From NCBI GenBank assembly GCA_965223665.1, contig OZ245011.1, forward strand, positions 3,872,001-3,936,000: 64,000 bases of DNA, read 5' to 3'. How positions within the stretch are numbered: position 1 is the stretch's first letter; each line of letters begins with the position of its first letter. Of this stretch, positions 8,867 through 47,991 are shown one piece after another. The DNA is from Nitrospinaceae bacterium. GTDB taxonomy: Bacteria > Nitrospinota > Nitrospinia > Nitrospinales > Nitrospinaceae. The translations under genes were made by a program, and so were the position numbers. The notes under the pieces were generated by a model, which saw nothing but the letters and a program-made list of their open reading frames with translations, had not been told where the DNA came from and ran no database searches.

Positions 8867-10180
8867 ATGACGGGCTCAATGGCAGATTTAAAGCAAACAC
8901 AAGAAGCAGAAATCATTGATTTATTTAAAAAAATTAAACCCTCCGATAGTTTGCAGGAACTACGAGAAGCAGCTATTCATCGATTTGAGGCTTTAAAGTT
9001 TCCACACAAAAAACATGAAATGTATACGTTTGCCAATGTGAAGGAGTTGGCTACCACCTCTTTCGTTTTGGCAAAAGAAGGGCCAATAGATTCAAAATTA
9101 ATTTTAGATAATGTGTACCCGTCTTGTAAAAATAGCTTTATTGTTTTTGTGAATGGATTTTTCCATGAGGGGCTGTCAAATATTTCTTCAATGGGAACTT
9201 CAATAAAGTTAATTGATTTAAATTCGGCGACTTTAGATAAAACTTTGCATTCCTATTTATTAGAAACAAATTCTAATGAAAATGATGTGTTTGCTACTTT
9301 AAATGGGGCTTTTTCTAATGGTGGATTACTTGTTGATGTTGCCGAAAACGCTACCTTTGAACAACCGTTACAAATTGTTTATGTTTCCCATTCCTCATCA
9401 CCCCAACCAATGACTTCACATCCACGTTTATTGATTCGACTTGGGAAATCAGCAGAGTTGAAGTTGATTGTTAAATTCTTAGGATGTGGAGAGAAGTATT
9501 TTGTGAACTGTGTTCAAGACTTTTTAGTTGAGGAAAATGCAGGTCTTACTTATTCGCAAATTCAACAGGATAATGCAAATGCTTGGCATTGCTCTAAAAC
9601 GCGTGCCAACATAAAAAGAAATGGTCGGTTTATTTCTTCTAATGCATCCTCCGGAAACCGTTTGACCCGGCACCATTATGAAGTCCATTTAAAAGATGAG
9701 GGAGCTGAAGCCCAACTGAATGGAGCTTCTGTTTTGATAAATGAAGAACAGGTTCATAACTTTGTTCGCATTCATCATGAAGCGCCTCATTGTACGAGCC
9801 AGCAATTATTTAGAAATGTTATTAATCATAAAGGGCGTTCAAGCTTTGATGGAACGGTGATCGTCAATAAAGGGGCGCAACTAACATATTCTGATCAATT
9901 AATAAATAACTTAATGCTTTCAGATGAAGCTCATGCAGATAATAAACCTAATTTAATGATTTTTGCAGATGATGTGAAATGTACTCACGGAGCAACCGTT
10001 GGGCAAATTGATGAGGATCAATTATTTTATTTGAAAACTCGAGGACTTTCCGAGGAGTTAGCGCAATCTTTGCTTACTAAAAGCTTTGTGGAAACGGTTA
10101 TACAAACAATACCTTTTCCCGAAGTTCGGGAGGACCTGGATGATATTTTATTGAAAAAATTGGAGGCCAATCATGGCTGA
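8867..10180 (+). CDS. sufD: Fe-S cluster assembly protein SufD
   Basis: P.L.IFADDVKCTHGATVGQ, FYL.TRG; position between sufC and sufS. Confidence 0.95.
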   Translation: MTGSMADLKQTQEAEIIDLFKKIKPSDSLQELREAAIHRFEALKFPHKKHEMYTFANVKELATTSFVLAKEGPIDSKLILDNVYPSCKNSFIVFVNGFFHEGLSNISSMGTSIKLIDLNSATLDKTLHSYLLETNSNENDVFATLNGAFSNGGLLVDVAENATFEQPLQIVYVSHSSSPQPMTSHPRLLIRLGKSAELKLIVKFLGCGEKYFVNCVQDFLVEENAGLTYSQIQQDNANAWHCSKTRANIKRNGRFISSNASSGNRLTRHHYEVHLKDEGAEAQLNGASVLINEEQVHNFVRIHHEAPHCTSQQLFRNVINHKGRSSFDGTVIVNKGAQLTYSDQLINNLMLSDEAHADNKPNLMIFADDVKCTHGATVGQIDEDQLFYLKTRGLSEELAQSLLTKSFVETVIQTIPFPEVREDLDDILLKKLEANHG

Positions 10181-11426
10181 TGCAGATACAACCACTCTGG
10201 TTTCGGGGTTTGAGGTAGATAAAATTCGTAGTGAATTCCCTGTGCTTTCACAAAAGGTTAATGATAAACCCCTAGTTTATTTAGATAATGCGGCTACTAC
10301 TCAAAAACCCTGGCGGGTAATCAACCGAGTCCATAAGTTTGATTCTGAAGAGTATGGAACTGTGCGTCGCGGAGCTTATAGGGTAAGTGAAAGATCGACC
10401 CAGTTATATGAAGATGCACGACAAAAATTGGCAGACTTTCTAGGGACACCGGATCGCAAAGAAATTATTTTTACTAGTGGTACGACACAGTCGATAAATT
10501 TAGTGGCTCATAGTTATGGTAAAAAATTTGTAGAGTCTGGGGATGAAGTTATTATTTCTACTATCGAACACCACGCAAATACGGTTCCCTGGCAAGTTTT
10601 ATGTGAAGAAAAGGGTGCGAAATTAAAAGCAATCCCAGTAAACGACCGTGGCGAATTGATAATGGAAGAGTATGATAAGTTATTGACGAATCGTACTAAG
10701 GTAGTTTCCGTTAACCATGTTTCAAATGCATTGGGAACTATTAACCCTATTAAAGAAATCACTGATAAGGCCCAAGCTGTAGGCGCCAAGGTATTAATTG
10801 ATGGAGCGCAAAGTGCTCCTCACATGAAAGTGAATGTGAAAGAATTGGGTTGTGATTTTTATACATTTTCCGGACATAAAATGTATGGTCCCAGTGGCAT
10901 CGGAGGCCTTTATGGAAAAATGGAAGTGTTGGAGTCTATGATTCCTTATGTAACTGGCGGTGATATGATTCGCCAAGTTACCCTGGAAAAAGCAACTTAT
11001 GCGGATCCTCCTGCGCGATTTGAAGCTGGAACGCCACCAATTTCACAAGTTATTGGCCTTGGAGAAGCAGTTGATTATTTACAGGAAATTGGATTAGATA
11101 AAATAGCTGAATATGAGAATAGTTTATTAGAATATGGAACCCGACTGTTTGAAGACATTGGGGGATTAAATATTATTGGAACGGCAGAAGAAAAGGCGAG
11201 CATAATTTCTTTCCATTCAGATGTAATACATCCTCATGATATGGTTACATTATTGGATCAAGATGGAATTGCTGTAAGAGGGGGGCATCATTGTGCTCAA
11301 CCGACCATGCAAAGATTTCAGGTTCCGGCCACCTCTCGGGCGTCGGTATCTTTTTATAATAAATTTGAAGAGCTTGATGCTTTAGCTGAGAGCGTTCAAA
11401 AAGCGATTAAACTTTTTTCAGGATAA
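10173..11426 (+). CDS. sufS: Cysteine desulfurase SufS
   Basis: YLDNAATTQKP, EHHAN, DGAQ, FSGHKMYGP, RGGHHCAQP. Confidence 0.96.
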   Translation: MADADTTTLVSGFEVDKIRSEFPVLSQKVNDKPLVYLDNAATTQKPWRVINRVHKFDSEEYGTVRRGAYRVSERSTQLYEDARQKLADFLGTPDRKEIIFTSGTTQSINLVAHSYGKKFVESGDEVIISTIEHHANTVPWQVLCEEKGAKLKAIPVNDRGELIMEEYDKLLTNRTKVVSVNHVSNALGTINPIKEITDKAQAVGAKVLIDGAQSAPHMKVNVKELGCDFYTFSGHKMYGPSGIGGLYGKMEVLESMIPYVTGGDMIRQVTLEKATYADPPARFEAGTPPISQVIGLGEAVDYLQEIGLDKIAEYENSLLEYGTRLFEDIGGLNIIGTAEEKASIISFHSDVIHPHDMVTLLDQDGIAVRGGHHCAQPTMQRFQVPATSRASVSFYNKFEELDALAESVQKAIKLFSG

Positions 11427-11500
11427 TAACGACTATTTTTTAGATATTGAAATAGTGGTAAAACAAGTTTTTTTGGAGTTGATTGAAAAGGAATTAAATT

Positions 11501-11953
11501 ATGTCCTATGATAATGAGCTTTACCAACAGGTGATTCTGGATCATAACAAAAAGCCGAAAAATTTCCGTGATATGGAAGATGCTACTCATTCCTGTCATG
11601 GATTCAATCCGCTTTGTGGAGATGATTATACTGTTTACCTTAAGGTCGATGGCCAAAACATTATTCAGGATATTAGTTTTATGGGATCAGGATGCGCTAT
11701 ATCTAAGGCAAGTTCTTCATTAATGACCAGTTTTTTAAAAGGAAAACCTATTGAGGATGCTAAAGTTGTCTATGAAGAGTTTCACAAGATGGTATTAGGT
11801 GAATTTGATCCTGAAAAAGAAGAGAATCATTTGGGAAAACTAAAATTGTTTATGGGGATACGAGAATTCCCCTCACGAATTAAGTGCGCTAGTTTGTCAT
11901 GGCATTCTATGGTTGGCGCTTTAAATAAAGACGATAAGGTTACAACGGAATAA
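11501..11953 (+). CDS. sufU: SUF-system sulfur-transfer/scaffold protein SufU
   Basis: LYQQVILDH..P.N, NPLCGD, GCAISKAS, RIKCA; follows sufS. Confidence 0.93.
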   Translation: MSYDNELYQQVILDHNKKPKNFRDMEDATHSCHGFNPLCGDDYTVYLKVDGQNIIQDISFMGSGCAISKASSSLMTSFLKGKPIEDAKVVYEEFHKMVLGEFDPEKEENHLGKLKLFMGIREFPSRIKCASLSWHSMVGALNKDDKVTTE

Positions 11954-11998
11954 TTTGAAGATTTAACTTCTAAATATCACCCCATCAAAAGGAGGTGG

Positions 11999-13069
11999 GT
12001 GATTAACACACCGAACGCACAATCCTTGTTAGATCAATCCACCCGGTCGGGTGATTTGTCCATCCCTTTAAAAAATAAATCACTCATTTGCACAGCTTGT
12101 GGGCATCGTTGTGAATTAAAGCCTGGAAAGCGAGGGGTTTGTAAAGTCCGGTTTAATGAAGAGGGTGTTTTAAGAGTTCCTTTTCAATATACAGCAGGAT
12201 TGCAGAATGATCCAATCGAGAAGAAACCCTTTTTTCATGTTTTACCAGGAAGTGATTCGCTAAGTTTTGGAATGTTGGGTTGTGACTTTAAATGTGGGTA
12301 TTGTCAAAACTGGTTTACCTCGCAAACTTTAAGCGATGAAGCTTCAACAGTAAGCTTCAACGCAATTACCTCCAATGAAATTTGTGACGTAGCGGAAAAG
12401 CATAAAGTAAAGACAATAATTTCTACTTATAATGAACCATTAATTACAAGTGAATGGGCTGTAGAGGTATTTAGAGAAGCGCGAACACGCAATTTTCTAA
12501 CCGGCTACGTTTCTAACGGTCACGGAACGCCCGAAGTGCTTGAATATATAAAACCTTGGTTAGATATAATTAAAATCGATTTAAAATGTTTTGATAAAAA
12601 TAAATATAGGAAATTGGGTGGGGGGTTGGATCAAGTATTGGAAACTATTCATTCGGTAAAAAGTATGGGATTTTGGTTGGAAATTGTTACCTTAGTGATT
12701 CCTGAATATAATGACTCAAACTCAGAATTAACCAAAATAGCGAAATTTATTGCTTCAATTTCTCCTGACATCCCTTGGCATGTAACCGGTTTTAATCCTC
12801 AATATAAAATGTTGGATAAAAGAAGTACCGAAATTAACCATTTAGTGAGGGCAAGGGATATCGGTATGAGTTTCGGGCTTCATTATGTTTATGCCGGAAA
12901 TAGGCCGGGCATGATTAAGAATGCAGAGGATACATTTTGTCCTAGTTGTAAGAGAACTTTAATTAAGCGTTTCGGATTTCGCGTTTTGAAAAACTATTTA
13001 ATCAATGGAAGATGTCCGCATTGTTTTTACTCCATTCCGGGGGTTTGGAGTAAAAATTTTCTAAAATAA
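11999..13069 (+). CDS. amrS: AmmeMemoRadiSam-type radical SAM enzyme
   Basis: C..C.H.C.L..G..G.C.VR, DPIEKKPFFH, GCDFKCGYCQNW, TYNEP, C-terminal T.CP.C...C..C. Confidence 0.88.
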   Translation: MINTPNAQSLLDQSTRSGDLSIPLKNKSLICTACGHRCELKPGKRGVCKVRFNEEGVLRVPFQYTAGLQNDPIEKKPFFHVLPGSDSLSFGMLGCDFKCGYCQNWFTSQTLSDEASTVSFNAITSNEICDVAEKHKVKTIISTYNEPLITSEWAVEVFREARTRNFLTGYVSNGHGTPEVLEYIKPWLDIIKIDLKCFDKNKYRKLGGGLDQVLETIHSVKSMGFWLEIVTLVIPEYNDSNSELTKIAKFIASISPDIPWHVTGFNPQYKMLDKRSTEINHLVRARDIGMSFGLHYVYAGNRPGMIKNAEDTFCPSCKRTLIKRFGFRVLKNYLINGRCPHCFYSIPGVWSKNFLK

Positions 13070-13396
13070 GAGAGAAATGAAAAGTGGTTCTAATTCTTAA
13101 CCTTCAAAAAATGTTTTGTAATAATAAGATTCCTGTTTCGCCTCTTCAAGATACTCGCTTTGTAAAACCAAATTTTATAATCAATTAGAAAATTTTGGTT
13201 TCCTCGGTTTGATTTTCTGTTTAGTTGTGTCGCTAAAAATGTTAAGGTTGTTTCCCCGCCTTTTGCAGGCCTTATAAGGCTATTCAAAATTTTGGGAACT
13301 TATTCGAGGTTTTCTGTTTTGAGGCTGTATAAAAAATGGATGGGCGGGTTTCTTCATTTTATTGATTGAGTCCGATAGAAAATTTCTGATAAAAAA

Positions 13397-15145
13397 ATGA
13401 TTTTGATTGAAAATAAAATAAGGAGAATGGGAAGTTTTAAAAGTTTGATTTTTGCTTGTGTTTTAATTTGGGTTTCATCAAATGCATTTGGACAAACTAA
13501 TGTTCCGCCAGCTGGGGAATCGGGCGTAATTGAAAAATCCCTGCGGTCTTCTCGTCCACAGTTTCAATCACCTGAGAAAGATATATCAAATATAATAAAA
13601 AATGATAGCCGAAAGGTTGAGGATCCTGGAGCCGGACCGCGTTTTTTTGTTGAAAAAATTCAGGTTCAAGGAAATACTCTGTTTTCCGATCAAGAATTAG
13701 CTCCTTTTGTAAACTTAGGTGGCACGGTAGAAGTTACTTTAGGAGTTCTGACCTTAATTGCCAATGAAATTACCGCCTTTTATGTTTCCAAAGGCTATAT
13801 TTTATCTTTTGCCTATATTCCTCCTCAGGAAATTGCTAATGGGGTGGTCCTTGTCCAAATTGTAGAATCAAGGATTGGCAAAATAGAGGTGCAAGGGAAT
13901 GAAAGATATACTGACGGCGAGATTTTGTCTTGGATGGAACAAGTACAAAAAGAGCGGGTTTTAAGTGAGCAAACTCTAGAACGAGCTTTACTTGATTTGA
14001 ATGATATATATGGGCTAAAAGTGCAATCCATTTTAAAACCCGGTGATAAAACTGGAACTTCCGATTTAGTTTTAAAAATTCAAGAATCAAAATCCTTTAA
14101 ATTTGAATTTGATGTAGATAACTTTGGTTCTCGATTTACAGGTCGACATCGATTTGGTTTAACTGCTTCTATTGACAATTTAGGATTGTTTGGAGACTCA
14201 TTCTCTATTCGGGGTTTAAAGTCCGAAAACAATCAAAATTATATTAATGCTAATTATTCTGTTCCAGTTTCCAATTATGGAACGCGGGCCAACTTTTCCT
14301 TTATATATTCTGACTTTGTATTAGGAGATTCGTTGAGCATTTTAAATGCTGAAGGGACATCAAATCTCATTTTGTTTGATATTACCCAAAAGATACATCG
14401 TTCTCGAAGATCCGAATTGTACATTTCAATCGGAGGTGAAATTAGAAACTTTAAAAATAGCCAAGCTAATAATCAAACCAGCAACGATAAGTTAAGAGAT
14501 ATATTTTTGGGATTAGGAGGAAATTGGTCTGATGGATTGTTTGGAAGGACTTTTTATGATATTCGACTTCAATGGGGTTTTACTGAAGGAAATATTGCGG
14601 ACCCACTTAACTCTCGATTTCATGGCAGAGGAGATGTTTTGATTTCCAGCTTTTCTTTTCAAAGATTTCAATCCATAAAAATTTTTAATTCATACTTTGT
14701 GATTAGGGGGAAGGGACAAATTGTTGCCAATCGGGTATTATCACCGGATCAGTTTGCTATTGGTGGTTTTGGAACAGTGCGTGGTTTTCCCCTGGCTGAA
14801 AATGCTGGTGACAATGGATTTACTTTTTCCTGGGAGTATGTATTGCCTTTTCCTGTAAAAATTCCTTTAACTTCTAAACCAGGTTTAAAAAGTTTGAATG
14901 AAATACTTTCGTTGTTTGGCTTTATTGATCACGGTCAGATTTTTGTCAGAAATAAACAGCCTGGAGAAATTAATAGTGAATTAACCGGCGCGGGCGGAGG
15001 CATTCGCGTCAATATTCCGAAAATAGATTGGCTTTTTCCTCAGATTAGTATAACCGCCTCCTATGGCTTTCCTGTTTTTACAAATAATGACCCCTCCGAT
15101 GGTTCTTCATCTACATTTTATTTTGCTGGTTTGATTTCCTTTTAA
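13397..15145 (+). CDS. ShlB/FhaC/HecB-family two-partner secretion transporter (TpsB)
   Basis: Signal peptide, POTRA-like GNT.F...Y...GY...AY.PPQEI..G.V...I.E..IG, DNFGS..TG, IGG.GTVRGF loop-6 motif, F.D.G, terminal Phe. Confidence 0.92.
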   Translation: MILIENKIRRMGSFKSLIFACVLIWVSSNAFGQTNVPPAGESGVIEKSLRSSRPQFQSPEKDISNIIKNDSRKVEDPGAGPRFFVEKIQVQGNTLFSDQELAPFVNLGGTVEVTLGVLTLIANEITAFYVSKGYILSFAYIPPQEIANGVVLVQIVESRIGKIEVQGNERYTDGEILSWMEQVQKERVLSEQTLERALLDLNDIYGLKVQSILKPGDKTGTSDLVLKIQESKSFKFEFDVDNFGSRFTGRHRFGLTASIDNLGLFGDSFSIRGLKSENNQNYINANYSVPVSNYGTRANFSFIYSDFVLGDSLSILNAEGTSNLILFDITQKIHRSRRSELYISIGGEIRNFKNSQANNQTSNDKLRDIFLGLGGNWSDGLFGRTFYDIRLQWGFTEGNIADPLNSRFHGRGDVLISSFSFQRFQSIKIFNSYFVIRGKGQIVANRVLSPDQFAIGGFGTVRGFPLAENAGDNGFTFSWEYVLPFPVKIPLTSKPGLKSLNEILSLFGFIDHGQIFVRNKQPGEINSELTGAGGGIRVNIPKIDWLFPQISITASYGFPVFTNNDPSDGSSSTFYFAGLISF

Positions 15146-15342
15146 TTTCCCTGAATTCAATATTTTTTACGCCTTGGATAAAATATCGGTGATTATGAGA
15201 ATTTTTCATAATTTGATCTTAAATCCCAAAAAACAAACCCTAATGGGGTATTTATTCTGATAAATGGTAAAATTGCTTTACTTTTGTTGGGTAAGTTCAT
15301 AATATCTACAAGGTAAATCTAATTTATGGATAAAGGCTATCC

Positions 15343-16167
15343 ATGCAAAATCTTTCCATTATAAGAAAATACCTAATCTTTTTAGCCTCAATCTCAGTTT
15401 ATATTTTTTTTGGGGGTTTGAGCCTAGCCCATTCTGAAGAAAAATCCATCGGCAAAATAATAGCTATTATTGGCCAAGCAGAGTTTATTAATGAAACAGC
15501 AGAAGTAACTTCTGAACTTAAAGGTGGTTCGATAAAAAAGGTTTCCTCTCCGATTTGGCAGAAAGTGATTCCCCATCAAAAGGTTTTTCCTCAAGATGTA
15601 TTTAGAACCTCAAAGAAAAGTCGGCTGAGAATTCTTTTTAACGATAGTAGTTTAATGGCATTGGGACCTAGTACAAAGATGAAAGTCTCTTCATATATTG
15701 TTAATTCAGAAAAAAAGTTTCGAAAAGGTGTAATGGATTTAGCGCATGGGCTTTCAATGTATATTGTTAATAAACAGCATAAAAGTGAGGGCTCCTCTTT
15801 CAAAATGGTATCACCCACTGCAAATATTACTGCAAGAGGAACTCAAGGGTATTTAAGTGTGTCTAAACAAAAGACTCTAGTGGCAAATTTAGCGGGAGCT
15901 GTTTCTGCAGAAAATTCTGATCCAGCTGTTACTGGGGAAGTTTTAGTCGGAATCAAGGAAAGCTCTATAGTTGAGAAAGGCAAACCTCCTACAGAACCAC
16001 AGCCTATTCGTAATGTAGAATTACAGTTTCTACAGCAAACGGTTATGGGTTGGCCTAATCCAAAAATAGATGAAGAATCAAATGGGGATTCAACTTTAGA
16101 GGAAGCTTTTGAGGAAGATTTTGAGCCGTTTGATGATATTGATAGCAATTCTTGTAAATCAGGATGA
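15343..16167 (+). CDS. Exported FecR-domain protein with acidic C-terminal tail
   Basis: Signal peptide; D..RT...SR..I.F.D.S...LGP.T and SPTA....RGT FecR-domain motifs. Confidence 0.85.
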   Translation: MQNLSIIRKYLIFLASISVYIFFGGLSLAHSEEKSIGKIIAIIGQAEFINETAEVTSELKGGSIKKVSSPIWQKVIPHQKVFPQDVFRTSKKSRLRILFNDSSLMALGPSTKMKVSSYIVNSEKKFRKGVMDLAHGLSMYIVNKQHKSEGSSFKMVSPTANITARGTQGYLSVSKQKTLVANLAGAVSAENSDPAVTGEVLVGIKESSIVEKGKPPTEPQPIRNVELQFLQQTVMGWPNPKIDEESNGDSTLEEAFEEDFEPFDDIDSNSCKSG

Positions 16168-16171
16168 ACAT

Positions 16172-18439
16172 ATGCGTAAGGGGAGAAAAGTGAAACTTAT
16201 TCCATTCAAAATATCTAACTTTATTCTTTTGGGATGGTTATACTGCGTTTTTTCAATTTTCCCTTCTAAAATTTATGCGCTTCCTTCGGGGGGAAATATT
16301 ATCCAGGGAGAAGGTTCTATTCGACTACCCTCCGCCCAAGAATTAAATGTTCAACAAAATTCGCAAAAGTTAATTGCCGAATGGAACTCTTTTGGAATTG
16401 GGGCTACAGAATCAGTACGGTTTATTCAGCCCAATGCAAATTCAGTTGCCTTAAATAGAGTGATAGGTAGTGACCCGAGCCAAATTTTAGGAAAGTTATC
16501 AGCAAATGGACAAGTATTTTTGGTCAATCCTTCAGGAGTCTATTTTGGGCCAAACTCTATTGTGGATGCCCACGGATTTATTGGATCTACTTTAGATCTT
16601 AGCAATCAGGATTTTTTCGATGGTAATTATACCTTTATCAAAAATCCCTCAAAACCTCTGGCTTCTATTATTAACCAAGGGGAAATTAAAGCAGGGGCAT
16701 ATGCCGGCCTTGTAGCTCCTGCAATTTCAAATGGGGGAAAAATTATTGTAGCTGATCTGGGAACAGTGGCTTTAGGGGCGGGAGAAGCAGCTGTTTTAGA
16801 TTTCAATGGAGATGGCTTAATAAACTTTACCATCACCCAACCAGTATTAGGAGAAGTTCCAGATAATAATGGAATTTTATTACCAAATAGGATCTTAAAC
16901 TCCGGTCAAATTCAGGCAAATGGAGGACAAGTTCTTTTAATGGCTAAGGAAGCTGGAAATATAGTACGTGATGTTGTTAATCATTCAGGAATAATTGAGG
17001 TCAACTCAGTTGTTAAAAAAAATGGACGGATTGTTCTATCAGGTGGAGAAAAGGGTATTGTTAATGTTTCTGGAACCCTCAACGCTATAGGAAATAATAT
17101 TGATGAAAATGGTGGCCATATTACCATTGAAGGTGAAGAAATAGGATTGTTTCAGTCAGCAATATTGAATGTTGCTGGAATGGCTAGTGGTGGAATGATT
17201 AATGTGGGTAAAGGTTCAAATGGAACTATCAATGCTCCCACAGCTAAAAATGTTTATATAGGTGAAAATGTTCAAATGTTAGCCAATTCATTATCATTTG
17301 GGGAAGGTGGAATAGTCGGCCTTTATGCCGCGGATACGTTACGCCACTATGGGCAAATTAATGCTGCGGGAGGTCCTTTGAATGGGAATGGTGGAACCGT
17401 AATTAATTCTGGAAAGCGTTCTATCGAGATCAAAAATGCTCCCGATATTAGTACAAATAATGGTTCGGGCGGGGATTGGTTAGTAATTGATGCAGATGTA
17501 ATTGAAATTTTACCAGGAAAAGGAGTATTTGATTCTGGTGGCGACCCCTTTGGGAATATTGAAGATGGATTGAAATTTGGGGCTGATTTAATTCTAGATG
17601 CTTTTGATGAAGGTTCAACTGTATTTATTGCAACAGGTTTTTTGGGAAAGAAAGAAAATGGTAGTCTCTTTTTGAATGCTCCAATTGATTTCACAGGCAA
17701 AGGGCCAAATTCTTTAATTTTAGGTGCCAGGAAGCATATTTTCTTAAACGAAAGTATATTTACACCTGGTAAAAACTTTAATGACCGATTAAATGTAACT
17801 TTATTAGCCAATACTGATGAGGGAATAATAGGTTCCTTCTATTTGAAGGAAGGTAAAGTTGTTGATTCGAATAATAGAGATATCTGGATAAGAGGGGCAG
17901 ATTTTCATTCGAGGGGATTATTAAAAAGTGGAACGGCACGGGTAGTTATTCGAACTCGCGGAATTAATAGAATGTCTATAGGAAATGGAACTAATAATCC
18001 TGGATTTACCATAGATAATGACGAACTGAGCAGAATTATGGCTGATAGGGTAATCTTTGATAGTTTGGGTAATATTTATATTGATGGGGTCCAACAAAAT
18101 TCAACCAATTCTATTAATCAATTATTATTCTTTTCTGGCGAAAAAATTGTAACTCAAGGTGAAAAATCTTCTTTTACCCCTGGGGTGGAATTAAATGCTC
18201 GTGATAAGATTGAAGTTAATGCTGATTTAGAAGTCCAGGGGGACTTGGTTGCCAATGTGCAAGTAGGAGGAGTTGAAGTAAGTGAAGACGTTTCTGTGGA
18301 GGCTGTCAATTCACAATTTAACGAAAATGGTTCCGGGAATTCTTTGAGCTTTGAAGAAAGAGAATTGGTGGAGCAAGGTAACTTAAGTACTTTTATAAAA
18401 GAATTTCTGGAAAATGGAAAAACTTTTAACGATTGTTAA
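16172..18439 (+). CDS. Filamentous haemagglutinin N-terminal (TPS) domain exoprotein, TpsA-like, ~755 aa
   Basis: ALPSGG, WNSF.IG, F.QP...S.ALNRV, S.I.G.L.ANGQVFLVNPSG TPS domain, Gly/Asn-rich beta-helix repeats; ATG 16172 just after the FecR stop preferred over TTG 16109. Confidence 0.9.
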   Translation: MRKGRKVKLIPFKISNFILLGWLYCVFSIFPSKIYALPSGGNIIQGEGSIRLPSAQELNVQQNSQKLIAEWNSFGIGATESVRFIQPNANSVALNRVIGSDPSQILGKLSANGQVFLVNPSGVYFGPNSIVDAHGFIGSTLDLSNQDFFDGNYTFIKNPSKPLASIINQGEIKAGAYAGLVAPAISNGGKIIVADLGTVALGAGEAAVLDFNGDGLINFTITQPVLGEVPDNNGILLPNRILNSGQIQANGGQVLLMAKEAGNIVRDVVNHSGIIEVNSVVKKNGRIVLSGGEKGIVNVSGTLNAIGNNIDENGGHITIEGEEIGLFQSAILNVAGMASGGMINVGKGSNGTINAPTAKNVYIGENVQMLANSLSFGEGGIVGLYAADTLRHYGQINAAGGPLNGNGGTVINSGKRSIEIKNAPDISTNNGSGGDWLVIDADVIEILPGKGVFDSGGDPFGNIEDGLKFGADLILDAFDEGSTVFIATGFLGKKENGSLFLNAPIDFTGKGPNSLILGARKHIFLNESIFTPGKNFNDRLNVTLLANTDEGIIGSFYLKEGKVVDSNNRDIWIRGADFHSRGLLKSGTARVVIRTRGINRMSIGNGTNNPGFTIDNDELSRIMADRVIFDSLGNIYIDGVQQNSTNSINQLLFFSGEKIVTQGEKSSFTPGVELNARDKIEVNADLEVQGDLVANVQVGGVEVSEDVSVEAVNSQFNENGSGNSLSFEERELVEQGNLSTFIKEFLENGKTFNDC

Positions 18440-18506
18440 AATATCTTTTATAAAATTTTAATGGTAAATGATTGAATCCTTCCTATTTTTAAAGTATTAA
18501 TTCTAA

Positions 18507-20735
18507 ATGAAAAAGTGGTGGTTGAATCCCTTAACAATTTCTGTATTCATCACTTTAATTTCCTTATCCATTTATAGATTAGACTTTTTCTTTTTTCGCT
18601 TACTTGAGTTAAAAGCTTATGACTTTCTTATGTCCACACGCGGAGTCCAACCCGTTTCGGATAAAGTAGTCATAATTTCGATTGATGAAAAAAGTTTAAA
18701 GCAAGAAGGACGATGGCCATGGCCAAGAACGCGATTAGCAAAGCTGGTTGATCGTTTGGTAGAAAACAATGTTTCTGTAATTGGGATCGATCTTCTATTT
18801 CCTGAAAAGGATGATCATGTTTCCTATAATGAATTTCTATCCAATTTAAAAAGTCAAAAGTTTAAACGGAAGGATGCGGATGAAATAATTGATTGGGTTG
18901 TTAATTTAGAACATGCGGATCAACAGTTTGAAACATCATTAGAACAATCAAATCGTGCCGTGTTAAGTTATTTCGTATATTCTTCTAAAGAACAGGCCGG
19001 GAACCACGTATTGCCCCTAAGTACAAAAGATTTTAACTTGTTGGATTTTTCCCAGTACCCTTTGGTGAAAAAAGAAAAAAATAGTGATCCTTCAGCTTAT
19101 CTAAGATCCATTTATGCTGTTGGAATGTCTTTACCAATTCTGATGAAAGCAGCGAATAGCGCAGGTTTTGTTTCTTTCATCCCGGAGCATGATGGGGTAA
19201 TCCGAAGAATTCCACTAATTCAGATCTATAAAGATTATCTGTTTCCTCCATTTAGCCTTCAAGTAATAAAAGAAGCTACCAGTTTGAATTTATTTGCTCA
19301 TCTTCTCCCGCAAAGGGTAGGAGAAATTTCATTAGGGGGAAGGTTAATTCCCGTATCCGAGGAAGGAGATTTTTTAATAAATTTCTTTGGTCCCAATAAA
19401 ACATTTTCTCATTATTCAGCTACTGACGTTTTACAAAAAAAAATCAATCCCAATAATTTAAAAAATAAAATTGTATTAATTGGTGCGACAGCCACCGCAA
19501 TTCATGATTTGCATACCACTCCTTTTGGCCCCTTAATGCCAGGAGTCGAGGTCCATGCTAATGTTATTGAGAATATTTTATTTGATAAATTTATTCGAAG
19601 ACCTGCTTGGGTTCCTTTGTTTGATGCCGCGATGATTTTAGCACCAGGGTTATTAATTGGCGCTTTTGCCTTATCCCTAAAAGCATTTGGAACAGCCGTT
19701 CTCTTAATTTTTGGTTTAATTGGTTTTTGCACCCTGGATTTTTATCTGTTTTGGATGGAAGGACTATGGGTTAATACTGTATACCCTATTTTTTCACAGT
19801 TATTTGTTTATTTTGGGATCACTTTGTATCGCTTCGCTTTTGAAGAAAAAGAAAAGCGATTTATAAAGGAAGCTTTTAGTCAATACCTTGCGCCTACGGT
19901 AGTTGATCGTCTTGTAAAAGACCCTTCCTTATTAAAGCTAGGTGGAGAGCGGCGGATCATCTCTGCATTTTTTTCGGATATTGCTGGGTTTTCGAGTATT
20001 TCTGAAAGGATGTCCCCTGAAGATTTGGTGGATTTATTAAATTTATATTTAACTGAAATGACACAAGTATTAATGAAGCAGGAAGGTACAGTTGATAAGT
20101 TTGAGGGAGACGCCATTATTGCCTTTTTTGGAGCTCCGATTTCTTATAAGGATCATGCCAAACGGGCCTGTTGGGCCGCATTGGAAATGCAAGGTCGTTT
20201 GAATGAACTTCGAAAACGTTGGAAGGAGGAAGGTAAACCTGAGCTTTTTATGCGAATTGGAATCAATACTGGCACTGTTGTTGTAGGGAATTTAGGATCT
20301 AAAAGTCGCATGGATTATACAATGATGGGGGATTCAGTTAATCTTGCTTCTCGACTTGAAGGAGTAAACAAACAATACCATACAGAAATTATTATTAGTC
20401 AATTTACATATGAAGAAGCCAAAAACCATATACAGGTTCGGCAGTTGGACTTAATTCGTGTGATCGGTAAACAGCAGCCCATAAAAATTTATGAGTTATT
20501 AGGGAAAAAAGATGAAATGAAAGAAAGTATAAGAAAAATTCTTCCATTTTATAATGAAGGATTGCGTCATTATCAAAACCAAAATTGGGAGGAAGGAATT
20601 GAATGTTTTGAGAAAGCGCTTAATATCGATGAAGACGATGGTCCTGCATTAACCTACTTCGAAAGATGTTTAACATTTCAAATGCATCCACCACCAAAAA
20701 ATTGGGATGGTGTGTTTACTATGCGAAATAAATAG
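18507..20735 (+). CDS. CHASE2-domain class III adenylate cyclase with C-terminal TPR-like module
   Basis: IDEKSL...GRWPWPR, DGVIRR, KIVLIG, TPFG.MPGVEVHA (CHASE2); 3 TM; FSDIAGF, DKFEGD, RIGINTG, DYT.MGDSVNLASRLE (ATP-specifying Lys/Asp). Confidence 0.93.
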   Translation: MKKWWLNPLTISVFITLISLSIYRLDFFFFRLLELKAYDFLMSTRGVQPVSDKVVIISIDEKSLKQEGRWPWPRTRLAKLVDRLVENNVSVIGIDLLFPEKDDHVSYNEFLSNLKSQKFKRKDADEIIDWVVNLEHADQQFETSLEQSNRAVLSYFVYSSKEQAGNHVLPLSTKDFNLLDFSQYPLVKKEKNSDPSAYLRSIYAVGMSLPILMKAANSAGFVSFIPEHDGVIRRIPLIQIYKDYLFPPFSLQVIKEATSLNLFAHLLPQRVGEISLGGRLIPVSEEGDFLINFFGPNKTFSHYSATDVLQKKINPNNLKNKIVLIGATATAIHDLHTTPFGPLMPGVEVHANVIENILFDKFIRRPAWVPLFDAAMILAPGLLIGAFALSLKAFGTAVLLIFGLIGFCTLDFYLFWMEGLWVNTVYPIFSQLFVYFGITLYRFAFEEKEKRFIKEAFSQYLAPTVVDRLVKDPSLLKLGGERRIISAFFSDIAGFSSISERMSPEDLVDLLNLYLTEMTQVLMKQEGTVDKFEGDAIIAFFGAPISYKDHAKRACWAALEMQGRLNELRKRWKEEGKPELFMRIGINTGTVVVGNLGSKSRMDYTMMGDSVNLASRLEGVNKQYHTEIIISQFTYEEAKNHIQVRQLDLIRVIGKQQPIKIYELLGKKDEMKESIRKILPFYNEGLRHYQNQNWEEGIECFEKALNIDEDDGPALTYFERCLTFQMHPPPKNWDGVFTMRNK

Positions 20736-20746
20736 GGAGAGATTAT

Positions 20747-21118
20747 TTGTTTTTTGGTGAATATTTGGTGCAGCAAAAAATTATAAGCGAGAAGGATTTA
20801 GCTTTTGTATTAGATACTTTAGGGCAAAATAATAAGGTTCCTTTAGGACAATTAGCCGTTCAAAACGGTTGGCTAAGCCGAAAGGAGTTATTTAAAATTC
20901 TATCTGGGCAAAGAAAAGATAAAGATGTTAAGAAGAATTTTGGGACGCTTGCAATTGAATTAGGTTTTATGAATCAAACCCAAATTGATAACTTATTAAA
21001 AATGCAAGCTCAATCTCATCAGATGCTTGGGGAATATTTGCTTTCCAAAGAACTAATTAATAGAAAGAAATTAATTCAGTCTTTGCGTGCCTATAGATTA
21101 TTTTTGAATAACTTATGA
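20747..21118 (+). CDS. Small protein with four MshEN-like helical repeats
   Basis: FGEYLVQQKII, LGQLAVQNGWL, FGTLAIELGFM, LGEYLLSKELI repeats; GGGAG SD before the TTG start. Confidence 0.7.
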   Translation: MFFGEYLVQQKIISEKDLAFVLDTLGQNNKVPLGQLAVQNGWLSRKELFKILSGQRKDKDVKKNFGTLAIELGFMNQTQIDNLLKMQAQSHQMLGEYLLSKELINRKKLIQSLRAYRLFLNNL

Positions 21119-21705: not shown

Positions 21706-21972
21706 TTAATTCAAGCCAAGCATTTTGGGGAGGTCTGTACGGGTAAAAACCCAATATAGCAGCAAGCTAATAAAGGCTACTCCCCCAATAGTGCTCGCTA
21801 CCATTATTGCCATTCGTTTGGGATTTGCTTGTGCAAAATCCTTCATATCCCCCGCTAAGCTTCCAATGACGTTTTCATCCGGGCGTTTACGGAAGGTTTT
21901 ATCTATAGCATCTTTACCATAGATGATTCCAAAAATTATGAGAACGATTAATATTTCAATTGCGCCTATCAT
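21706..21972 (-). CDS. Hypothetical membrane protein (2 TM)
   Basis: Hydrophobic N- and C-terminal helices; overlaps the stop of the upstream gene. Confidence 0.65.
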   Translation of the reverse strand: MIGAIEILIVLIIFGIIYGKDAIDKTFRKRPDENVIGSLAGDMKDFAQANPKRMAIMVASTIGGVAFISLLLYWVFTRTDLPKMLGLN

Positions 21973-24469
21973 ATCTTAAAACATTTGCCATAGAAATTTT
22001 AGATGGAACTATATAAACTCCGGGTTCGTTGGAGGTCATTTTTTTTGGAGTATCCATTTTTGATCCACTGAGGGCGCAACGAAATCCATAATCATCCATT
22101 TGTGTTTCAGGATAACTGTTGTTTCGAAAGGAGGCGTATATGAGAGAACGCAAATCTCTCCATGACCCTCCCTTGAGTACCTTAAATTCACCCCCAATTT
22201 GTCCCTTTGGATTTATATATTGAGTTTCATCCTTATAATACTCTCGATCATACCAATCGTCTACCCATTCTTTTACATTCCCTAGTAAATGGAAAACTCC
22301 GTAAAGACTTTGACCCTTGGGCATTGTATCCACAGGTACCATGACCCGATGTTTTAAATCATCAGTCCAAGTTTGAAGATATCTAGCAAGCTGAGGGCTG
22401 ATAGGGTCCGATCCCCAAGGAAATAAGCGACCATCAGTACTTCGGGCGGCTTTTTCCCACTCTGCTTCGGTAGGTAGTCTTTTACCTTTCCAACGACAAT
22501 AAGCATCTGCTCCATACCAACTCACATTATTTATGGGATATTTATCAAAACCCTTTCTAGGTTTAAAAACCGAATTATAAATTAATATCCCATATTGGCT
22601 GTCTTTATAAAATTTTTTATGATCTTTAGTTTGATTTAAAAAATCAGAATAATCTTTTGCTGTCACTTCATATTTATCAATGTAATAGGAGTCCAAGAAA
22701 ACCTTATGTTCGGGAAATTCGTCATCCCCATGATGCTGGGCTCCCATAATAAAAAACCCTTTGGGAACAAGAACCATGTCTTTAAAAGTTAATTTTTTTT
22801 CCTCAGACTTAAGCAATGATTTAGCCCTATCAATAAATGGTCCATTAGAATCCTTATTTATATATTTTTCTAAATAAGGTTGAGCTTTGTGAAAGTTATT
22901 ACTGCGTATTAAAATCCAACCTAAATAAAAAAGAAGGTCTTTTCGTTGTGGATATTTCCCCATTGCCTCTTGTAGGTCAAATACTATAGAGTCAATGGTT
23001 TTGGAATCTTTTGAATCCAAAGACTGTTGATACCATTTTTCTGCAGTGGAATAATCTTTTTTTATCACATTGTAAAAACCAAGGTTCATATAAGCTAATG
23101 ATAAGAAGCCTTTTGATTTTGATTTTTCAAGTCCTTTTTTTGTCCAATCTATTGCGGTATCTATACTGCCCATTTGATAATGTGTCCAACCCAACTGGAT
23201 ATACATTTGTAGCATGTGGGGAAGTTTTTCAATCAAAAACTCATATTGAATAATGGCATTATCATAATCTTTCAATCGATAATGGGCCTCCGCAATTCTT
23301 TCATTTACTTCAATTCTCTGAGGAAACATTTTTTGAACCTTTTGAAATTGATTTAAGGCCAGGTCATATTGTTTCATTTCTAAATAAAGGGTACCTACAT
23401 TTAAATGAGGAACAAAGTCCTGTGGTTGTAACTCTGTCATTACTGTTGTATGTAGAAGCGCGCTAATATATTTTTTCTGATCCATAAAAAGTCGAGCAAG
23501 CATCTCGTGAACTCTAGGAAAACCGGGATTGATTTGAGCTACTTGTAAAAATGATTGAATTGCCTTTTCTTTTTTGCCGGAATCTGAATAAGCTACTCCC
23601 AGGTTGTATAAAGTAGAAAAATTATTTGGGTCTACTTTTAAAGCTTTTTCATATTGTTCAATAGACTTAACAAAATTTTTTGTGTCTGAATACATGTTCC
23701 CAAGGTTATTAAGGGTGTCTATTGAAAGGGGATTGATTTTAGCGGCAAGTTCCATGTAGAAAAATGCTTTTTCCATTTTTCTGATTTTGTAATATGTGAT
23801 TCCTACATTTGAAAAATAAGCACCCAAAGTTTGTTTTTTATTAAGGTTTTTTAAATAATATAGAGAGTTGGGAGAAGGAGAAAATCGGTTCTTGTAAAAA
23901 ATATCCTGATAGATTGTTCCTTTAGCCGTCGTTTCAATATTTATTTTTTTACCACCGGATTCGTAGCGGACGAAAAAATGATTGGGCAAAGGGACACCAT
24001 ATATAGGCAAGTTTAATTTTTCTGCGATGATTAAATATAGTAAAGATAAATTCATACAATATCCGCGTTTGTTTTGTAAGAGCCCATGAAGAAAAAGCTC
24101 TTCTGGGTTTAGGGGAAACCCTTGCGGATCTGTAAAAGGTGTGTAATCAAACCCCCATTTAAGATGGATTACTTTTTTCAGGGCATCAATAATCTCTTCC
24201 GGAGAATTTTTTTCAGTTATAGCAACTTGAGCATCTTTAACAATCTCATCAATTAATTTTTTTAAACTTTCTAAATCTATATTGGGTTGCCAATCTTGTG
24301 ATATTAAAAATAAAATCTCTGTTAGCTCGATTTTATCGTTTGAAAGTTGCAACAGGCTTTCAATGTTTTCTTTGGAAGAGTTGTTGGGGAAATTTTGTCC
24401 TGAGGAATAGGAAAACAAGGACAACCATAAGACAAACAATAACAATAAAGTTTTATTATGAAATTTCAA
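21956..24469 (-). CDS. Exported multidomain protein: transglutaminase-like (SirB1-type) + TPR array + FGE/SUMF1-like domain
   Basis: Signal peptide; KRGYC..LS.LY..IA..L.LP.YGV..P.HFFVR; about 8-9 TPRs; IDKYEVT, VSW..A.AYC.W.GKRLPTEAEWEKAAR, GNV.EW..DW, KGGSW, GFRC. Confidence 0.87.
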   Translation of the reverse strand: MKFHNKTLLLLFVLWLSLFSYSSGQNFPNNSSKENIESLLQLSNDKIELTEILFLISQDWQPNIDLESLKKLIDEIVKDAQVAITEKNSPEEIIDALKKVIHLKWGFDYTPFTDPQGFPLNPEELFLHGLLQNKRGYCMNLSLLYLIIAEKLNLPIYGVPLPNHFFVRYESGGKKINIETTAKGTIYQDIFYKNRFSPSPNSLYYLKNLNKKQTLGAYFSNVGITYYKIRKMEKAFFYMELAAKINPLSIDTLNNLGNMYSDTKNFVKSIEQYEKALKVDPNNFSTLYNLGVAYSDSGKKEKAIQSFLQVAQINPGFPRVHEMLARLFMDQKKYISALLHTTVMTELQPQDFVPHLNVGTLYLEMKQYDLALNQFQKVQKMFPQRIEVNERIAEAHYRLKDYDNAIIQYEFLIEKLPHMLQMYIQLGWTHYQMGSIDTAIDWTKKGLEKSKSKGFLSLAYMNLGFYNVIKKDYSTAEKWYQQSLDSKDSKTIDSIVFDLQEAMGKYPQRKDLLFYLGWILIRSNNFHKAQPYLEKYINKDSNGPFIDRAKSLLKSEEKKLTFKDMVLVPKGFFIMGAQHHGDDEFPEHKVFLDSYYIDKYEVTAKDYSDFLNQTKDHKKFYKDSQYGILIYNSVFKPRKGFDKYPINNVSWYGADAYCRWKGKRLPTEAEWEKAARSTDGRLFPWGSDPISPQLARYLQTWTDDLKHRVMVPVDTMPKGQSLYGVFHLLGNVKEWVDDWYDREYYKDETQYINPKGQIGGEFKVLKGGSWRDLRSLIYASFRNNSYPETQMDDYGFRCALSGSKMDTPKKMTSNEPGVYIVPSKISMANVLRYDRRN

Positions 24470-27884: not shown

Positions 27885-28457
27885 ATGAAGAGGCCATTTA
27901 ATGACGAGCCAATTGAAACTTTGATTAAAAAAGTTTTATCAAAAGATGGCGCAAGGCTCGACCTCCGGTTAAAATATATAGGTGATAAAGGTTTGGAATA
28001 TTTAGCTAATTTGGAAGAATTGAAAAATTTAAAAGAATTAAATTTGGAGCGAAATGATATTACGGATGTTGGAATTCGTTCCTTATCGGAATCTCCCTTT
28101 ATTAGACATTTAAGTATTCTTCATCTAGAAAGAAATGAGATTGGTGATGAGGGAATGAGGATGATTGCAAATTCTAATAACTTCTCTCATTTAAATTATC
28201 TAAATTTGTGGAAAAATAATGTGGGATCTGAAGGAGCGAAAGCATTGGCAGATTCATTGATTTTGTCAAGTTTAGAAATTTTAGATTTGGCGCAAAATCA
28301 TATTGGGGACGAAGGCGCAAAATTTCTTTCTGAAACATTGACTCTTTCTGGATTAAATTATTTGGACGTTTTTGGAAATGGTATCACAGAAGAGGGGCAA
28401 AAAGTTTTAAAGGAATCAGAGGCGTTTAAAAACACTCAGGATATTATTTTGACATAA
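27885..28457 (+). CDS. Leucine-rich repeat protein (ribonuclease-inhibitor-like ~28-aa repeats)
   Basis: Repeated L..L.L..N.IGDEG...LA motif, about 6 copies. Confidence 0.88.
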   Translation: MKRPFNDEPIETLIKKVLSKDGARLDLRLKYIGDKGLEYLANLEELKNLKELNLERNDITDVGIRSLSESPFIRHLSILHLERNEIGDEGMRMIANSNNFSHLNYLNLWKNNVGSEGAKALADSLILSSLEILDLAQNHIGDEGAKFLSETLTLSGLNYLDVFGNGITEEGQKVLKESEAFKNTQDIILT

Positions 28458-42920: not shown

Positions 42921-43871
42921 TTATTGAGGGGTAAATACTTGGTGATATTGACTTCCTCCTCCTCCCGGATTAGGTCCTCCTGTTATTAAATGAATGCTTC
43001 CCTTTAACAAAGCCGATCCTAAGCCATGGCATGATTTGGGCATAGGTTCTTGAGTTTCCCACCTATTTTCCATTGGTAGATAAACTTCATTTTGATTGAA
43101 AGTTCCTTCTCCAGATTCTCCACCGAATACGTATATCTTGCTGTGAAGAGTTTGAGAAGTAATTCCACTCCGAGCTGTGGGTAACGGCGCCAGGGTTTTC
43201 CATTGATTTGATTTTGGATCGTAAGATTCGTTTGTATCTAAATTTTCATGATAATTCACATTGACTCTGCCGCCAATAACATAAATAGTATTTTTAAAAA
43301 CTGATAGCGTCAGATGATCACGAGGGGTGGGCAATGGTGCCAGTGATTTCCATTGGTCAGTTGTTGGATTGTATACTTCATTGGCATCGGTATTAACAAG
43401 TTTTAAAAATTTTTTGTGTGCTCCTCCCACCGCATAAATTTTTCCATTAATTACTCCAGTGGCCAAAGCTCCTCGCCTGGTGGGCATGGGAGATTTTTCT
43501 TTCCATTGATCTGAGGAGGGATCATATTCTAGAGTTATATTTTGGGGAAACCATAGACCGCCAGTAAATCCGCCGATAATATAAATTTTCCCGTTAGTAG
43601 ATACGGCAGAGGTATGATGCAATGCTTTAGGCATAGGTGAACCTATTGACCATGTTCCCGAATTAGGATCATAAATTTCTACTTGGTCAGTAATTCCCTT
43701 TGGAGTGAACCCACCGAATACATATATTTTTCCTTGGTGGTTTACAACCGCAACTTCTGTCCTCGGTGTAGGGGTTTTAGGCAATAGGGACCACTGTTCA
43801 CCAGTTTGGGCCCAGAGAATTTGTGAAAAGAGACAAAAAAGGCAAATGATGGCATTAAATAATACTTTCAT
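42921..43871 (-). CDS. Exported Kelch-repeat beta-propeller protein
   Basis: Signal peptide; six repeats of P..R.......GKIY..GG.......E.Y.P....W. Confidence 0.9.
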   Translation of the reverse strand: MKVLFNAIICLFCLFSQILWAQTGEQWSLLPKTPTPRTEVAVVNHQGKIYVFGGFTPKGITDQVEIYDPNSGTWSIGSPMPKALHHTSAVSTNGKIYIIGGFTGGLWFPQNITLEYDPSSDQWKEKSPMPTRRGALATGVINGKIYAVGGAHKKFLKLVNTDANEVYNPTTDQWKSLAPLPTPRDHLTLSVFKNTIYVIGGRVNVNYHENLDTNESYDPKSNQWKTLAPLPTARSGITSQTLHSKIYVFGGESGEGTFNQNEVYLPMENRWETQEPMPKSCHGLGSALLKGSIHLITGGPNPGGGGSQYHQVFTPQ

Positions 43872-47504: not shown

Positions 47505-47991
47505 AATTTACGGTTATGGGCATCCCAATAGAAAAAAAAATAAAAAAGCTCAAGAATCCCATTTTTGGTTTCTAGAGTTTTTATCTATTGGGGCGTTTGT
47601 TTTTATTATTGGTTTAAGTCATTGGATGTGGGTAGATGGAATTGCTGGGCAATTTTATGGGTGGGTTTTTGAAGATACAACAGAATATTCCCCAAGCTAT
47701 AGTGATTCAGGATTTAAGAGGATTAAAAATGGGATGACAGTACCTCAAGTAAAACAAGTTTTAGGTGAGCCTTTAGAGCAATATTCTCCAGAATCGTATG
47801 CGGGTATGTGGTGGAGATATACCAAGGGTGCTAATAATGAAAATTATCGAGTTCGCGCTATTCGTATTGAAAACGGAAAAGTTACTGAAGTAAGAGGATA
47901 TTTTTATAACCCCACTCTTTATGAATTAAATAAAAATGATTTGCTTCCAGGTTTAAAAAGCAATCTAACCTACCAAAGAATCAGGCCTTAA
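47494..47991 (+). CDS. Hypothetical membrane-anchored protein with SmpA/OmlA-like motif
   Basis: One TM, then F..IK.GMT..QV..VLG.P and W.Y. Confidence 0.65.
   Translation: MSNKIYGYGHPNRKKNKKAQESHFWFLEFLSIGAFVFIIGLSHWMWVDGIAGQFYGWVFEDTTEYSPSYSDSGFKRIKNGMTVPQVKQVLGEPLEQYSPESYAGMWWRYTKGANNENYRVRAIRIENGKVTEVRGYFYNPTLYELNKNDLLPGLKSNLTYQRIRP

Follow-up and report, generated by a model that had tools for sequence, protein, structure and literature searches.

A lone C-terminal cysteine in each of two adjacent proteins, TpsA and a FecR-domain protein, points to a possible cysteine hook split over two genes in Nitrospinota

Introduction

Two neighbouring genes of a Nitrospinaceae bacterium each encode a protein whose only mature cysteine lies at its extreme C-terminus, raising the question of whether these residues join the two proteins to each other. 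The genes lie in a window of 64,000 nucleotides (nt) (GenBank assembly GCA_965223665.1, contig OZ245011.1, positions 3,872,001 to 3,936,000 of the forward strand), meaning the whole stretch of DNA that was analysed. They belong to a two-partner secretion (TPS) locus, where the genes of the transporter TpsB and the exoprotein TpsA are in the same operon and the gene of a FecR-domain protein alone stands between them. Judged from sequence, they are part of a four- or five-gene trans-envelope module in Nitrospinota, consisting of TpsB, the FecR-like protein, TpsA, a CHASE2 cyclase and possibly a small MshEN-like protein, which appears to be confined to Nitrospinota.

An initial annotation of this DNA had proposed that the hook anchoring some TpsA adhesins is here divided between TpsA and the FecR-domain protein. 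On balance, the analysis slightly favours such a split cysteine hook, in which the TpsA tail would stay in the periplasm, dock on FecR and be locked there by a disulfide, thereby tethering TpsA in TpsB and coupling it to the CHASE2 cyclase.

The FecR-domain protein and TpsA

The 274-amino-acid (aa) FecR-domain protein (Pfam FecR, PF04773, E 4.1e-10) has, as first annotated, exactly one cysteine near its C-terminus, Cys271 (codon 16153-16155), in a tail that ends ...DSNSCKSG. Its only hydrophobic segment is N-terminal, and neither a cytoplasmic anti-sigma domain nor a transmembrane helix besides the signal peptide was detected by Pfam and hydrophobicity. In the AlphaFold2 (AF2) model (predicted local distance difference test, pLDDT, 78.7), the signal helix is followed by a β-sandwich (residues 37-211), a helix (224-235), a disordered acidic stretch (238-250) and the tail, whose residues 251-260 have a pLDDT of about 77. 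The best fold match in the Protein Data Bank (PDB) is the C-terminal cell-surface signalling domain of PupR (6ovk_R; Foldseek, E 8e-7, probability 1.00), followed by a Parabacteroides anti-sigma factor (4m0h, 4m0n), and a PDB sequence search with the FecR profile returned nothing beyond chance-level ribosomal protein matches (E 0.16).

Regarding TpsA, the longest open reading frame (ORF) starts at TTG 16109 and encodes 776 aa with cysteines at residues 46 and 776. The ATG at 16172 is the more likely start, because an AGGA lies 9 nt upstream and the start of an 81%-identical homologue matches it, giving a protein of 755 aa with Cys25 and Cys755. Cys25 falls within the hydrophobic N-terminal signal segment (helix 14-29, before ...IYA/LP), and Cys755 is the last residue (...KTFNDC; codon 18434-18436, stop 18437-18439), so that the single cysteine earlier ascribed to mature TpsA, at its very end, is confirmed. 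The protein carries a TPS domain (Pfam PF05860, E 2.5e-33, residues 78-324 of the long ORF; TIGR01901, E 2.2e-21), and its AF2 model (pLDDT 83.3) is a β-helix with strands from residue 42 to about 718, best matched in the PDB by EtpA (8vbb, 8cpk), the HMW1 secretion domain (2odl) and HxuA (4rm6, 4i84). The tail, modelled without a partner, is disordered or of low confidence (pLDDT 34-50), with two short helices (727-734 and 739-748).

Both cysteines had been described as following acidic segments, and Asp or Glu indeed account for 13 of the last 39 residues of FecR and 7 of the last 37 of TpsA. The predicted mature masses are about 26.7 kDa for FecR and 75.4 kDa for TpsA, close in sum to the ~105 kDa previously expected for a heterodimer.

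Conservation of the terminal cysteines

A search of a 5.8-billion-protein set returned 28 FecR homologues with 44-100% identity, all 28 having a cysteine 2-6 residues ahead of the C-terminal residue. In an alignment of 23 of them (A1, five near-duplicates dropped), the C271 column is invariant; the acidic or Gly-rich linker that separates the FecR domain from the tail is hypervariable, with lengths of ~20 to ~200 residues. A genome scan with A1, using one genome per species, gave 33 loci, almost all from metagenome-assembled genomes (MAGs) of Nitrospinota. There, the cysteine is found in the last seven residues in 33/33 FecR genes with a stop codon, and it is the only one beyond residue 45 in 31 of the 32 genes having both start and stop codon in the locus.

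The TpsA stop is visible in 16 of these loci, and a terminal cysteine is present in all of them, as the last residue in 15 and the penultimate in one (L011, ending ...GCS). Counted among the 15 is L020, whose TpsA gene is split by a frameshift and whose downstream ORF ends ...EAGC, and the residue is also kept in L014, despite a rearranged order with TpsA upstream of TpsB. Both terminal cysteines occur together in 16/16 loci with both ends visible; the co-conservation among orthologs on which the initial annotation had staked its proposal was therefore found on both sides.

Similar results were obtained with the TpsA homologues, as 70 of the best 120 listed end in cysteine, including 67 of the best 75. 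Of these 70, 66 have no other mature cysteine, four have one extra pair, and 63 carry the motif F[LIVF]xxF[LIVF]x[ND] in their last 30 residues; the terminal cysteine is missing from the generic TpsAs that rank lower. An alignment of 64 of the 70 (A2; P0015, with a tail that looks like junk, and five near-duplicates were dropped) shows that Q735, L738, F741, F745 and N748 are each conserved in at least 92% of the sequences; the invariance of C755 in it is not evidence, because A2 was built from Cys-ending sequences only.

For comparison, 243 unrelated ORFs of at least 200 aa from the related loci served as background, where cysteine is the last residue in 5 (2%) and occurs in the last seven residues in 23 (9.5%). 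The range of the FecR cysteine was then delimited by a HMMER search with the FecR profile in 1.84 billion representatives, giving 8871 matches at E <= 1e-3 and 43 at E <= 1e-30. The terminal cysteine is present in 31 of those 43, most of the other 12 being short or truncated, fragment-like sequences, and in only 10 of the next 107 of the best 150 (8/105 once two tail fragments from the tight family are set aside), close to the background. Since the more distant FecR-domain proteins mostly lack it, the terminal cysteine is, by sequence, a mark of the TPS-linked FecR subfamily and not of FecR domains generally.

Longer TpsA homologues (e.g., L011, L025, L027, L029, P0007, P0021 and P0040) have additional cysteines, which always come as close pairs (CxxxC, Cx4C or Cx5C) situated 40-600 residues before the end. 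These probably form local intramolecular disulfides in an inserted C-terminal domain, leaving the terminal cysteine as the odd one.

The remaining envelope proteins of the module were surveyed in the same manner. The sole cysteine of TpsB, Cys21, is in its signal peptide, and among 25 TpsB homologues (the window included), cysteines are confined to the first 32 residues in 24, with one having a cysteine at position 554. The CHASE2 cyclase has cysteines at 408, 555, 700 and 721, none in its CHASE2 part, and 16 CHASE2 homologues have none before reference position 375, i.e., in the whole periplasmic domain. As far as these alignments go, the terminal cysteines of FecR and TpsA are the sole conserved extracytoplasmic cysteines of the module.

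Two other candidates were discarded in the course of this survey. CHASE2 or TpsB as the cysteine partner was rejected, as neither has a conserved extracytoplasmic cysteine. A lipoprotein reading of the signal-region cysteines of TpsB and TpsA was also set aside, as they lie inside the hydrophobic core, vary in position and are absent from many homologues.

Predicted binding of the TpsA tail to FecR

The complex of mature FecR (residues 31-274, with A1) and the TpsA tail (residues 690-755, with A2) was predicted with an interface score (ipSAE) of 0.71 (runs 0.69, 0.71 and 0.76), against 0.01 for the best control. Among solved complexes, 116 of 157 pass the same mark, as do 2 of 215 mismatched pairs, a calibration that is only rough here because our own alignments were used; the contacts agree between runs by at least 31%. 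As the TpsA tail has no sequence match in the PDB, this pass is unlikely to stem from the memory of a solved complex.

In the model, L738, F741, F745 and N748 of TpsA dock on the FecR β-sandwich, and the FecR tail folds back beside them. The predicted TpsA interface (738-739, 741-742, 744-752 and 754-755) is composed of the conserved tail motif and the terminal cysteine, and that of FecR comprises residues 88, 91, 108-112, 134-137, 170, 172-174, 177, 179, 181, 207, 209, 220, 222, 226, 229-230, 233 and 271. On the strength of this model, the TpsA tail probably binds FecR in some form.

Proposed split hook

In the proposed mechanism, TpsB would export TpsA, placing the β-helix (~42-718) on the cell surface, with the last ~35 residues retained in the cell and ~20 residues (719-737, Pro-rich in most relatives) threading the TpsB pore. 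The conserved amphipathic tail (735-755) would then dock on the periplasmic FecR β-sandwich, and Cys755 would be oxidised to a disulfide with Cys271. Since folded FecR (~27 kDa) cannot pass the pore, it would act as a stopper, blocking the release of TpsA. The same protein would be the likely partner of the periplasmic CHASE2 domain and thus the link to the cyclase, because FecR-domain proteins recur beside CHASE2 sensors. Cyclase output would consequently change with events at the surface part of TpsA (its binding, pulling or cleavage) or with whether the tail is present; in a variant, FecR captured by the tail would be titrated away from CHASE2, as an alternative to force or conformational coupling. 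All of this mechanism, from the topology and the disulfide to the contact between FecR and CHASE2 and the direction in which signals pass, is inferred from these data, with the retention of the TpsA end in the periplasm deduced from the predicted binding of its tail to a signal-peptide protein.

The hook divided between two genes, as first formulated, is partly supported, through the co-conserved cysteines, their standing as the sole conserved extracytoplasmic ones, the predicted tail-FecR binding with both Cys-bearing ends in the interface and the fold match of TpsA to EtpA, HMW1 and HxuA. One point needs refining: the model brings the tail onto the folded domain instead of joining two loose acidic tails to each other.

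Several observations weigh against the split hook. Although the interface takes in both residue 271 and residues 754-755, a mutual contact between 271 and 755 was not reported by the prediction, the fold of the tail in the complex is uncertain (partner pLDDT 44-49), and conservation of the predicted FecR interface does not exceed that of the remaining domain (0.66 versus 0.67, Mann-Whitney p = 0.54). Both cysteines being invariant, their conservation fits other roles too, and no covariation of gain or loss is available. Besides that, no Dsb protein or gene was found among the gene-sized ORFs of the window, which were scanned with Pfam. In 14 of the 33 loci, TpsA, several of them longer than 3000 aa, runs past the contig DNA covered, so that its end is unseen, and among the 120 homologues listed for one such giant (L022, first 700 residues as the query), only one ends in cysteine. 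This is its top match, P0295 (2120 aa, 68% identity, single cysteine), whereas P0296-P0302 (48-61% identity), known as proteins without gene context, are not Cys-ending; an end common to three of the latter suggests a genuine C-terminus. Finally, one locus (L023) keeps the FecR cysteine with no TpsA gene in the 17.7 kb examined.

Alternative explanations

The rival that survives best is that the tail binds FecR non-covalently, the cysteine pair acting as a reversible redox switch, as a shared metal site gating the interaction or in TpsA-TpsA or FecR-FecR homodimers. The predicted binding needs no disulfide, as the hydrophobic motif formed by L738, F741, F745 and N748 could carry the affinity alone; yet both cysteines, the only conserved ones outside the cytoplasm, fall in that predicted interface. 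The Asp/Glu-rich tails of both proteins could contribute to a metal site, and the invariance of the cysteines fits any essential thiol role, but a lone exposed cysteine in the oxidising periplasm is usually paired, and the extra cysteines of longer TpsAs are indeed paired (CxxxC or Cx5C), with the terminal one being odd. This explanation is thus considered unlikely, though it deserves serious attention.

A second rival is that the two cysteines have unrelated functions, with TpsA being fully released and its cysteine acting outside, for example by binding a surface, a metal or another exoprotein, while the FecR cysteine bonds a protein encoded elsewhere. In its favour, release into the medium is common among TpsAs, a terminal cysteine is missing from several giant TpsA relatives, and the FecR of L023 keeps its own without an adjoining TpsA gene. 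Against this stand the joint presence of both residues in all 16 loci with visible ends, the rearranged L014 included, and a complex prediction specific to the pair (0.71 versus <=0.01 in controls). Two mini-TpsAs, in L005 (2374-2802, 142 aa) and L010 (651-1019, 122 aa), speak in the same direction, as both lack the TPS domain and the β-helix but retain a signal region and the conserved tail ending in cysteine, with TpsB reduced in L005 to a 125-aa ORF matching its C-terminal part and the CHASE2 gene missing in L010. Either genuine gene decay or faulty MAG assembly may have produced them; if they are real, the tail was kept where secretion was lost, which fits a role of the tail on the periplasmic side. 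Unrelated functions are thus quite improbable.

Lastly, chance or phylogenetic inertia preserving functionless cysteines is extremely improbable, for although the loci come from one phylum, Nitrospinota, and represent related sequences instead of independent events, identities go down to 38-50% (FecR) and 37-55% (TpsA), the residues flanking each cysteine vary and the FecR linker is hypervariable, yet the cysteines persist in 33/33 and 16/16 cases against a background of only 2% (last residue) and 9.5% (last seven).

Exceptional loci

Three loci (L013, L023 and L024) are uninformative on TpsA. In L023, TpsB, FecR and CHASE2 (9932-13557) and the MshEN-like protein follow the synteny of the window, with SUF genes upstream, and the 267-nt gap between FecR and CHASE2 holds no small hidden ORF of a TpsA tail. 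Its FecR carries 34 additional residues inserted in the domain, and its tail motif (...DIFTETAADPTEETDTGCTS) is altered but retains the cysteine; the FecR of L024, whose gene is cut short by the end of its contig, falls in the same subgroup. Concerning the giant TpsAs, a BLAST of the P0295 tail against the giant and TpsA set found P0063, a Cys-ending TpsA, alone, plus a weak match to P0317.

The module also occurs as paralogues in one genome, as two FecR-TpsA systems lie ~8.5 kb apart on opposite strands in L019 (2-1347, minus; 9899-20625, plus) and likewise in L026 and L032, each FecR having its own Cys-bearing tail end. A further representative, P0186 (303 aa), opens with a stretch matching positions 119-212 of the FecR profile and closes with a tail of the TpsA type (...LLADFLDSGGINKPNC), appearing to be either a FecR/TpsA-tail fusion or a frameshifted gene call.

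The module and its genomic context

The features of the module are listed in Table 1. The assignment of TpsB is based on Pfam ShlB (PF03865, E 5.6e-26), POTRA_2 (E 1.3e-18) and POTRA (E 1.5e-8). The cyclase combines CHASE2 (residues 17-371, E 4.7e-66), Guanylate_cyc (485-663, E 4.1e-25) and TPR_2, with hydrophobic segments at residues ~11-30 and 366-417. Its cyclase motifs (FSD..., K..GD, and D and N...R in ...DYT..GD.VN.ASRLE) presumably correspond to those of active adenylate cyclases. A complete CHASE2 gene is found in the same cluster in 15 loci.

Table 1. Coordinates of the module genes and of the two conserved tail motifs in the window.
Feature	Position	Strand	Description
TpsB outer-membrane transporter	13397..15145	+	582 aa; POTRA domains and ShlB/FhaC-type barrel (Pfam)
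FecR-domain protein, predicted periplasmic	15343..16167	+	274 aa; 197-nt gap after TpsB gene
FecR tail motif, residues 252-274 (LEEAFEEDFEPFDDIDSNSCKSG)	16096..16164	+	holds invariant Cys271
TpsA exoprotein	16172..18439	+	755 aa from ATG 16172; 4 nt after FecR gene
TpsA tail motif, residues 735-755 (QGNLSTFIKEFLENGKTFNDC)	18374..18436	+	ends in Cys755
CHASE2 sensor, class III nucleotidyl cyclase and TPR, predicted inner membrane	18507..20735	+	742 aa; 67 nt after TpsA
Small MshEN-like protein	20747..21118	+	123 aa; 11 nt after cyclase gene

The 123-aa protein matches the MshE-related cyclic di-GMP-binding domain of NCBIfam (NF053729, 64.8 bits versus a cutoff of 38) in two stretches. A homologue lies directly 3' of the CHASE2 gene in 11 of the 15 loci with a complete one and is also present in L010. 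The protein may belong to the module and is possibly a downstream effector. A dinucleotide-binding fold here stands behind a cyclase of the mononucleotide type (cyclic AMP or GMP), and in both repeats, the position that we take to be that of the key arginine seems to be Phe or Asn.

The module is flanked by housekeeping genes, upstream for SUF Fe-S assembly, NifU and radical SAM and downstream for a flavin reductase. Scanning the gene-sized ORFs of the window with Pfam revealed neither an extracytoplasmic function (ECF) sigma factor (sigma-70 r2/r4) nor a TonB-dependent receptor. The nearest locus (L001) is from a Nitrospinaceae MAG, with protein identities of 81-88% over the four genes, and such relatives place the DNA of the window in Nitrospinaceae, as judged by protein similarity.

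Convergent to the module lies the gene of an 837-aa protein (21956-24469, minus strand) in which many TPR repeats occur together with a transglutaminase-like core and a formylglycine-generating enzyme-like (FGE-sulfatase) domain. Further on, the window encodes repeat proteins with LRR_6 (27885-28457, E 9e-29), five Kelch motifs (42921-43871, E 6e-60) and, in two adjoining proteins, ankyrin repeats (47991-49013 and 49037-49696, E 2e-96 and 2e-42). Such repeats are typical of eukaryotes and are found here in a bacterial window.

Implications and comparison with known systems

If the split hook is correct, it would represent a second anchoring mode for type Vb exoproteins, in which an intermolecular disulfide, and not an intramolecular loop, holds the exoprotein to a periplasmic protein dedicated to stopping it. 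CHASE2 would also gain a concrete input, a FecR-like adaptor to which the tail of a surface protein is bound, and the FecR/PupR fold would be at work outside sigma/anti-sigma signalling, as the connection between a secretion pore of the outer membrane and a cyclase. More tentatively, and as a possibility that we rate below the hook itself, the module may embody a new kind of cell-surface signalling, with a β-helical TpsA antenna or adhesin disulfide-tethered via the TpsB pore to the FecR-like adaptor as the long-sought CHASE2 input, converting surface events into cyclic-nucleotide synthesis, with the hook split over two genes and TpsA being part of the sensor. The phylum Nitrospinota includes marine nitrite oxidisers, and the module may bear on surface or particle sensing by these cells.

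Turning to known systems, the TPS-domain TpsA and the adjoining cognate TpsB, with POTRA domains and an Omp85-type barrel, identify the locus as two-partner (type Vb). As in HMW1/HMW1B and HxuA/HxuB of Haemophilus influenzae and CdrA/CdrB of Pseudomonas aeruginosa, a TPS-domain β-helix TpsA would be exported by a TpsB pore. The portions of a TPS review that deal with anchoring describe the C-termini of HMW1 and HxuA as staying periplasmic, locked by a disulfide loop (PMC5422565), and CdrA is likewise stated to be held by a cysteine hook in the relevant parts of two reports (PMC7616799; bioRxiv 10.64898/2026.07.13.738186), which agrees with the two-Cys anchoring that the initial annotation had given for HMW1 and CdrA (PMC5422565, PMC7616799). 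However, the hook of HMW1, HxuA and CdrA is an intramolecular two-Cys loop in TpsA, whereas mature TpsA of the window has Cys755 alone, with the proposed second cysteine in FecR.

The second likeness is to FecA-FecR-FecI and PupB-PupR, in that a FecR-type periplasmic β-sandwich would again reach the periplasmic end of a component of the outer membrane and pass information inward. The cell-surface signalling domain of PupR binds the periplasmic domain of the outer-membrane transducer, and the FecR protein of the window belongs with this group by PF04773 and by its fold match to 6ovk_R. Unlike those systems, it lacks the anti-sigma N-domain, and neither an ECF sigma factor nor a TonB-dependent receptor is found in the window; here, the outer partner would be the TpsA tail, the output a CHASE2 cyclase and the link covalent.

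The third likeness concerns FecR-domain genes adjoining a CHASE2 transmembrane sensor, an arrangement that the window shares with the Burkholderia 'BiofilmReg' LysM-FecR protein and CHASE2 histidine kinase and the CHASE2 adenylate cyclase cluster of Campylobacterota, for which a shared pathway is assumed in the sections concerned (PMC5192318, PMC9239204). No TPS pair is described for these clusters in those sections, and the LysM domain of the Burkholderia protein is absent from the FecR of the window. In the part of one source that treats them, CHASE2 signals are described as unknown (PMC5192318), and the gene preceding the CHASE2 cyclase in magnetotactic bacteria is discussed in PMC4439547. 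In the openly available full-text literature, with subscription journals outside it, no paper was found that connects a TPS pair, or a pair of terminal cysteines, with CHASE2 or FecR-like proteins, the sole paper with both 'CHASE2' and 'hemagglutinin' being unrelated. TPS anchoring by a cysteine hook, FecR-type cell-surface signalling and FecR-CHASE2 neighbourhoods are each already known, and what would be new is their joining in this module, with a real chance that it represents a distinct signalling architecture.

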